DNA of 207 nucleotides. Origin: Escherichia coli (GTDB taxonomy: Bacteria > Pseudomonadota > Gammaproteobacteria > Enterobacterales > Enterobacteriaceae). The notes below the pieces were generated by a model. It made no database searches, had not been told where the DNA came from, and saw only the letters and a program-made list of their open reading frames with translations. Below are positions 1 to 207 of this stretch, one piece after another; the first letter of the stretch is position 1, and every line of letters begins with the position of its first letter. The translations under genes and the position numbers were made by a program. The stretch is from assembly GCF_003334255.1 (NCBI RefSeq), contig NZ_QOWU01000283.1; one strand, 5' to 3'.

Positions 1-207
1 CGTGCTGACTTATCTGATGGAACTTTACCAGATGGATTTTGCTGAACTTTCTGAAGCAGTATCCACACACTATCCCAGCCACAAGGGGGTGATCATGACG
101 ATAGCAGAGCAACTGGAAGAGAAAGGTCTGGAGAAAGGTCGTGCTGAAGAGCGCTCCAGATTAGTGCTCATGATGAGACAAAAGGGAAAATCTCTGGAGG
201 AAATCAA
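1..207 (+). CDS. Partial CDS (internal fragment, codon phase starts at base 2): C-terminal region of an Rpn-family (YhgA-like, PDDEXK_7/Transposase_31) recombination-promoting nuclease; paralog not assignable
   Basis: Frame starting at base 2 is open across the window (68 codons), translating to VLTYLMELYQMDFAELSEAVSTHYPSHKGVIMTIAEQLEEKGLEKGRAEERSRLVLMMRQKGKSLEEI. + strand frames 1 and 3 hit stops early (TGA at 43-45 and 42-44). The MTIAEQL start followed by a charged tail with G-spaced repeats (EEKG-LEKG-R) matches the Rpn C-terminal tail as I recall it. Family assignment is from memory, not from a database search. Confidence 0.7.
83..91 (+). promoter_or_regulatory. Internal Shine-Dalgarno / ribosome-binding site for the ATG at 95
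   Basis: AAGGGGGTG differs from the consensus TAAGGAGGTG core at one position (G for A, still able to G-U pair with the anti-SD). It is the only SD-like purine run in the window placed correctly before an ATG. In the host frame it encodes K-G-V. Confidence 0.45.
95..207 (+). CDS. Candidate nested in-frame small ORF (RpnS-like intragenic antitoxin / C-terminal tail protein), 3' end beyond window
   Basis: In-frame ATG at 95-97 is preceded by a strong SD (AAGGGGGTG, 83-91), leaving about 5 nt between the AGGGGG core and the ATG. Product would begin MTIAEQLEEKGLEKGRAEERSRLVLMMRQKGKSLEEI. Internal translation starts producing small tail proteins are described for E. coli rpn genes. Whether this start is used cannot be shown from sequence alone. 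Confidence 0.4.
   Translation, partial: MTIAEQLEEKGLEKGRAEERSRLVLMMRQKGKSLEEI
119..142 (+). repeat. Tandem direct repeat, 2 x 12 bp (GAGAAAGGTCTG / GAGAAAGGTCGT), in-frame, encoding EKGL-EKGR
   Basis: Seen directly: positions 119-130 and 131-142 are identical at the first 10 of 12 bases. Each unit is four codons in the coding frame, so a unit gain or loss would keep the reading frame. Confidence 0.6.

Follow-up and report, generated by a model that had tools for sequence, protein, structure and literature searches.

A chromosomal Rpn-family gene on an integrating conjugative element

The DNA analysed here, called the window below, is a 207-nt stretch of Escherichia coli. It covers the 3′ part of a gene for an Rpn-family nuclease, which resides on an integrating conjugative element of the SPI-7/PFGI-1 type. 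The window was matched in 53 of 5,426 complete E. coli genomes, on the chromosome in every case, and searching the plasmid collection with it gave no match. Positions 2–205 of the plus strand correspond to the C-terminal ORF of an Rpn-family protein or to a downstream 3′ copy of that ORF, as judged by the frame 2 translation and by genome matches at 100% and 99.5% identity. In strain S19-651 and 12 other genomes, the window (one mismatch, 99.5%) falls in the 3′ part of a gene of 312 codons, for which the annotation is Rpn family recombination-promoting nuclease. The only matches at 100% were found in strains 2015C-3121 and STEC2018-553, where the window lies within a 123-codon 3′ fragment. This partial copy is situated 73 nt downstream of a full-length rpn gene (locus L001, 3927–4295; locus L009, 2498–2866) and is followed in each case by its own terminator-like hairpin. 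Within the conjugative element the rpn gene is flanked by ssb and pilL, and its neighbours include an STY4534-family replication protein of such elements, a TIGR03759 protein and PilL2 of the PFGI-1 class. A TTG-initiated minus-strand ORF of 45 aa, antisense to the coding frame at positions 70–207 of the window, was taken to be a shadow ORF.

To place the gene within the family, the full-length protein of S19-651 was compared with protein family models. It matched Pfam PF04754 (Transposase_31/YhgA-like) at 3.4e-59 over residues 12–205; this nuclease domain is N-terminal in the full-length gene and lies outside the window itself. The protein also scored 115.7 bits against NCBIfam TIGR01784, for which the cutoff is 52.1. 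The S19-651 allele is thus a member of the Rpn family of YhgA-like PD-(D/E)XK nucleases as defined by PF04754 and TIGR01784. Among the NCBIfam models, the general TIGR01784 was the only one whose cutoff was reached, and no equivalog-level model was passed. An assignment as RpnA orthologue was rejected, with 201.7 bits against the cutoff of 583 of the RpnA equivalog NF007361. Passing the general model while missing the RpnA equivalog cutoff indicates that the gene is a distinct Rpn-family paralogue and not RpnA. A sequence search of the PDB with the full-length protein returned nothing significant.

An in-frame tandem repeat of 12 nucleotides

Frame 2 is open throughout the window and translates to VLTYLMELYQMDFAELSEAVSTHYPSHKGVIMTIAEQLEEKGLEKGRAEERSRLVLMMRQKGKSLEEI, which includes the stretch HKGVIMTIAEQLEEKGLEKGRAEERSRLVLMMRQKGKSLEEI. 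Two adjacent 12-nt units are found in this frame. Unit 1 at positions 119–130 is GAGAAAGGTCTG and encodes EKGL, and unit 2 at positions 131–142 is GAGAAAGGTCGT and encodes EKGR. They are identical at 10 of 12 bases and form a single exact 10-nt run at lag 12 that starts at position 119. Since frame 2 is open over the entire window, both units are in phase with an internal ATG at position 95. This agrees with the preliminary description, made from the letters of the window, which had pointed out two adjacent in-frame 12-mers downstream of this ATG, sharing 10 of 12 bases and encoding EKGL-EKGR. The 12 nucleotides that follow, GCTGAAGAGCGC (positions 143–154, AEER), look like a degenerate third unit when compared with GCTGAAGGCCGT (AEGR) in relatives. 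They mark the 3′ boundary of the variable tract, after which two types of tail, A and B, diverge.

The repeat was compared with randomised versions of the window. Exact runs of 10 nt or more at lag 12 arose in 6 of 20,000 dinucleotide-preserving shuffles; with every lag between 4 and 30 admitted, the number was 143 of 20,000. When codons were shuffled, 102 of 20,000 sequences contained such a run at a lag divisible by 3. These low frequencies make it unlikely, even when judged within the window, that the lag-12 repeat arose by chance. Tandem Repeats Finder with a minimum score of 30 reported no repeat in the window because two copies are too short and score too low. A general repeat search of the window did not list the lag-12 pair, which was verified by script. 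We give next to no credence to the reading that the two 12-mers resemble each other by chance, as products of a coding sequence rich in Glu, Lys and Gly: the region is purine-rich and Tandem Repeats Finder is silent, but the shuffles at lag 12 and of codons, together with arrays of up to 8 units in relatives, refute it.

A putative internal start and a small RpnS-type protein

Genes of the rpn family have been reported to yield two products: RpnL, a toxic nuclease, and RpnS, an antitoxin that is produced from an internal start and forms a dimeric three-helix bundle (Zhong et al., PNAS 2023; PMC10400941). In the window, the ATG at positions 95–97 of the plus strand is a putative internal start of this kind. 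It is preceded by a Shine-Dalgarno-like AAGGGGG at positions 83–89, 5 nt upstream of the ATG, whose role is proposed by analogy with the internal start of rpnA (PMC10400941). In the two-unit allele, the putative RpnS-type protein starting here would comprise 66 aa. At sequence level, the 3′ part of this rpn gene therefore has the two features that mark an rpnS, an in-frame candidate start and a candidate ribosome-binding site. AAGGGGG and ATG95 are conserved in 10 of 10 aligned copies, fragments included, and the motif M-T-I-A-E-Q/R-L was present in 137 of the retrieved proteins. In strain NCTC9112, the fragment (locus L005, 3001–3294) carries a 1-nt deletion and stop codons upstream of the ATG, and the 66-codon ORF is intact. 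This small ORF is annotated as a CDS of a ‘DUF433 domain-containing protein’. Its integrity despite a broken upstream frame argues that the ORF is preserved independently of the longer frame. A promoter scan showed no consensus sigma-70 promoter upstream of ATG95, either in the gene or in the fragment.

The structure of the putative 66-aa protein was modelled with AlphaFold2, which predicted helices at residues 3–29, 34–41 and 45–53 with a mean pLDDT of 76. The long first helix corresponds to positions 101–181 of the window, and the repeat, with unit 1 at RpnS residues 9–12 and unit 2 at residues 13–16, is located within it in the model. A profile built from 35 tails starting at this Met aligned with PDB 7th0_A, the three-helix bundle of RpnAS, at E=3.3e-13, with positions 1–60 matching chain residues 1–47. 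This places the tail among homologues of that fold; significance was reached by the profile only, and the single 66-aa sequence gave a weak match to 7th0 (E=0.53). The top profile matches, to designed repeat proteins and PPR proteins, were rejected as multi-stretch artefacts of a low-complexity helical profile. A Foldseek search of the PDB with the AlphaFold2 model found nothing below E=0.7, and only generic helix-turn-helix folds were returned.

The number of units varies from one to eight

The number of units was followed through the lengths of full-length rpn genes in the 53 complete E. coli genomes and through the members of protein clusters. In the lineage of the window, genes of 924 nt (n=3), 936 nt (n=13), 948 nt (n=1) and 960 nt (n=1) were found, corresponding to 1–4 units. 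In a sister lineage, which is ∼88% identical and carries a different tail, the lengths were 933 nt (n=2), 945 nt (n=2), 957 nt (n=7), 969 nt (n=23) and 993 nt (n=1), corresponding to 3–8 units in the full-length gene; over all copies with this other tail type the unit number ranges from 2 to 8. All length steps within each lineage are multiples of 12 nt. Second copies of the element, with genes of 945 and 993 nt, were present in two genomes. In these genomes the two element copies differ in the unit number of rpn: TUM1886 has 8 and 6 units (L006 and L012), and TUM9803 has 4 and 6 (L014 and NZ_CP135671.1, 922676–923644).

The succession of units was read off directly from 28 copies at 15 loci. 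One unit reads EKGR, two units EKGL-EKGR, three units ERGL-EKGL-EKGR and four units ERGL-KKGL-EKGL-EKGR. The five-unit string is EKGR-VEGL-EKGL-EKGR-AEGR, the six-unit string is the same with a second EKGL, and eight units read EKGL-EKGR-AEGL-AEGR-AEGR-AEGL-AEGL-AEGR. Protein P0133 has the tract EKGL-EKGL-EKGR. Alleles with 1, 2 and 3 units show no mismatch over the 150 nt that follow the tract, and between the 5- and 6-unit alleles, at 98.8% identity (957/969), the 12-nt gap is the sole difference. Steps of four residues also separate proteins within clusters at 90% identity, with lengths of 307 and 311 aa in one cluster, 306, 314, 318, 322 and 326 aa in a second, and 298, 302, 306 and 310 aa in a third. 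In the cluster representative P0001 (313 aa), EKGL-EGRRSG-AEER replaces whole units, and the residues of the tract do not add up to a multiple of four. A pair of indels or a sequencing error within the tract could account for this.

A fixed structural motif, in which two EKG[LR] turns of a charged helix are kept without copy-number dynamics, would account for the exactly two units in 13 of 18 genomes of the closest lineage and in nearly all downstream fragments. It is contradicted by alleles of that lineage with 1, 3 and 4 units whose sequences are otherwise near-identical, by 2–8 units in the sister lineage and by a one-unit protein, P0121, that is present on 327 contigs. With this ladder we regard the fixed motif as refuted, and it retains only a very small probability. 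According to the preliminary description, homologues should differ by whole units gained or lost, as a count of units in orthologous loci would show, and exactly two units in all homologues would speak against it. The count in the 53 genomes yielded 1–8 units, with 1–4 in the near-identical lineage and 2–8 with the other tail type, and alleles of 1, 3, 4 and up to 8 units are incompatible with a constant pair.

Two further statements of that description hold in part. The term hotspot is appropriate on an evolutionary time scale but not for fast change. Near-clonal sets of genomes (G1/2, G6/7 and G8; UCPROB-001/002; GPEC1209/1210) have equal gene lengths within each set. The rate of change is therefore not high, and the tract behaves as a hotspot in evolution and not as a switch for fast phase variation. 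The second statement was that any change in the repeat would alter the full-length and the small protein together. This applies to alleles of the S19-651 type, where the window lies inside the 312-codon gene, but not to 2015C-3121 and STEC2018-553, where it lies in the fragment and the small protein alone would be affected.

Partial 3′ copies downstream of the gene

On the element, up to two partial 3′ copies (0, 1 or 2) lie downstream of the full-length rpn gene, and every copy has a terminator-like hairpin of its own (for example L003, 3381–3761 and 3835–4215; L002, 4368–4721; L007, 3018–3266; and the copy in L001 given above). Copies that lie directly downstream of the full-length gene and keep the RpnS ORF correspond to the published rpnSs type, for which duplication is the reported origin and fusion a reported way of loss (PMC10400941). 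Some of the fragments are annotated as ‘RpnC/YadD family protein’. In strain SCU-171, two identical partial copies follow each other with a period of 454 nt. The 5′ junction of the partial copy lies ∼170 nt upstream of the internal ATG in one lineage and ∼85 nt upstream in the other, which suggests that the partial copies were duplicated independently in the two lineages.

Gene and fragment often differ in unit number. In 2015C-3121 and STEC2018-553 the full-length gene has 1 unit (…QLEEKGRAEER…) and the fragment has 2, and the gap in the alignment is a clean 12 nt that removes unit 1. Altogether, the numbers were unequal in 9 of the 12 loci where a gene is accompanied by one or more fragments (1/2, 4/2, 5/2, 6/2 and 3/4; L001, L004, L005, L007, L009, L010, L011, L012 and L015). 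A matching number of units in RpnS has been reported to be needed for inhibition of RpnL; this rule, like the antiphage function, is published for RpnC and RpnP2 only. One KGIE added to RpnC or to RpnCS alone stops inhibition, which returns when both carry the addition (PMC10400941). If this rule applies here, unequal numbers imply that the protein of the fragment is not the cognate antitoxin of its neighbour. The copies downstream could provide immunity against Rpn toxins of competing elements, or the mismatched copies may be relics. A third reading, that they are a store of silent cassettes with alternative tails from which recombination swaps toxin–antitoxin specificity, seems rather improbable to us.

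How units are gained and lost

The observations are very probably best explained by dodecamer units in helix 1 of the Rpn C-terminal domain that are gained and lost by misalignment and by recombination, and whose number sets the pairing of RpnS with RpnL. In this model, the 24 nt at positions 119–142 are two units of a 12-nt repeat, and each unit encodes [E/A/V][K/E/R]G[L/R] within helix 1 of the C-terminal domain. This domain would be common to the full-length nuclease toxin (RpnL) and to the small antitoxin (RpnS) starting at ATG95. Adjacent near-identical units could misalign, so that whole units are gained or lost by replication slippage or unequal exchange. As a second route, the gene could recombine by homology with the partial 3′ copies downstream. 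Each added unit would lengthen helix 1 by four residues, which in standard helix geometry amounts to ∼6 Å and ∼40° of register. The unit number would then determine which RpnS pairs with which RpnL, by analogy with RpnC.

The first route is suggested by the units themselves. The 6-unit allele contains GAGAAAGGCCTT twice and the 5-unit allele contains it once, and the unit that was gained or lost is identical to its neighbour; the doubled EKGL in EKGL-EKGL-EKGR of P0133 is of the same kind. Synonymous sites are common to the units within a lineage and differ between lineages (GGT/CTG versus GGC/CTT). Identity of adjacent units and lineage-specific synonymous sites form the pattern expected of misalignment between adjacent units, whether by slippage or by unequal exchange, and we infer that slippage is the main mechanism of unit change.

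The second route can be seen in one case. In strain APEC E19035, the gene looks like the 5′ part of a gene of the CM2 type joined to the 3′ part of a CM2-type fragment together with its flank, and no downstream fragment remains (L013, 1501–2445, versus L010, 1501–2839). With the fusion the fragment was removed and the unit count went from 3 to 4. One might thus propose that the count changes mainly by homologous recombination or gene conversion, with the 3′ copies or with alleles arriving on other elements, and not by slippage. Most loci offer 1–2 downstream 3′ copies, usually of a different unit count, and besides the clear fusion of gene and fragment in E19035, the exact joining of the tail types at the 3′ edge of the tract and the unequal counts in the two-element genomes (TUM1886, TUM9803) agree with such exchange. 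On the other hand, the 5- and 6-unit alleles differ by one internal unit that no fragment could have donated, a 2-unit fragment stands unchanged beside both, and counts of 6 and 8 are above those of any fragment seen. We consider it unlikely, if still a serious alternative, that recombination is the prevailing route, and misalignment of adjacent units complemented by recombination is the preferred reading.

The tails provide a further observation on the tract. Type A (RSRLVLMMRQKGKSLEEIKDF…) and type B (KKALEATYASVRRMSDMGMS…) are unrelated to each other, and each starts exactly where GAAGAGCG (AEER) ends, after an upstream sequence that both have in common (positions 143–154 of the window; L002, 4095 versus 4536). 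Judging from this junction, the tract may also be a point of recombination at which tails are swapped. Regarding the published dodecamers, the mechanism of expansion was given as unknown, with RpnL itself perhaps involved (Zhong et al.; PMC10400941), and a literature search for later work on the mechanism of the repeat found nothing.

Comparison with known repeat systems

The dodecamer described for other rpn genes is a four-residue repeat in helix 1 of RpnS whose start lies 8–20 residues from the initiating Met. Its number differs between strains within a species, and the unit consists of one hydrophobic residue and three residues that are charged or glycine (PMC10400941). The repeat at the present locus has its first unit at residue 9, inside the predicted helix of residues 3–29, and varies from 1 to 8 units within E. 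coli. In composition EKGL conforms to the published unit, and EKGR and AEGR, with Arg at the fourth position, conform in part.

The closest likeness is to RpnC/RpnCS. Both belong to the same protein family and have a strain-variable number of units just after the internal start in helix 1, and both are accompanied by partial copies of the rpnCSs type. The units are nearly alike, KGIE in RpnC and, in another register, KGLE/KGRA here. The present gene differs in its location on an integrating conjugative element by ssb and pilL and not at the chromosomal rpnC locus. The effect on specificity is also experimental for RpnC, whereas for the present gene it would follow by analogy, as would the role of RpnS as an antitoxin, both taken from the literature. 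With RpnA/RpnAS (PDB 7TH0), the tail shares its profile alignment over the whole 49-residue chain and a predicted three-helix bundle with a long helix 1; it differs in belonging to a protein that is no RpnA orthologue by the equivalog score (201.7 against 583 bits). The crystallised RpnAS marks only the approximate position of the four-residue insertions of other alleles (PMC10400941). Another parallel, as it is cited in the same work, is provided by the TAEL repeats in HsdS of EcoR124I and EcoR124II, where the number of a four-residue helical repeat likewise retunes specificity (cited in PMC10400941). According to that citation, the repeat sets the length of the DNA-target spacer of a type I restriction enzyme, whereas here it is the pairing of toxin and antitoxin proteins that is proposed to depend on it.

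Implications for the Rpn family

That four-residue units differ in number has already been published for rpn genes (Zhong et al. 2023). The present locus is a further, element-borne member of the family, and the preliminary description had read it correctly. Our data confirm for an element-borne rpn gene the published rule that these genes diversify by the addition and removal of four-residue helical units. They also provide a natural allelic series, in which 1–4 units stand in a near-identical context and the alleles of 5 and 6 units are equal in everything else; it could be used directly for relating unit number to pairing specificity. If the partial copies do act as cassettes, recombination with them would switch toxin–antitoxin specificity, and one such swap would be visible in APEC E19035.
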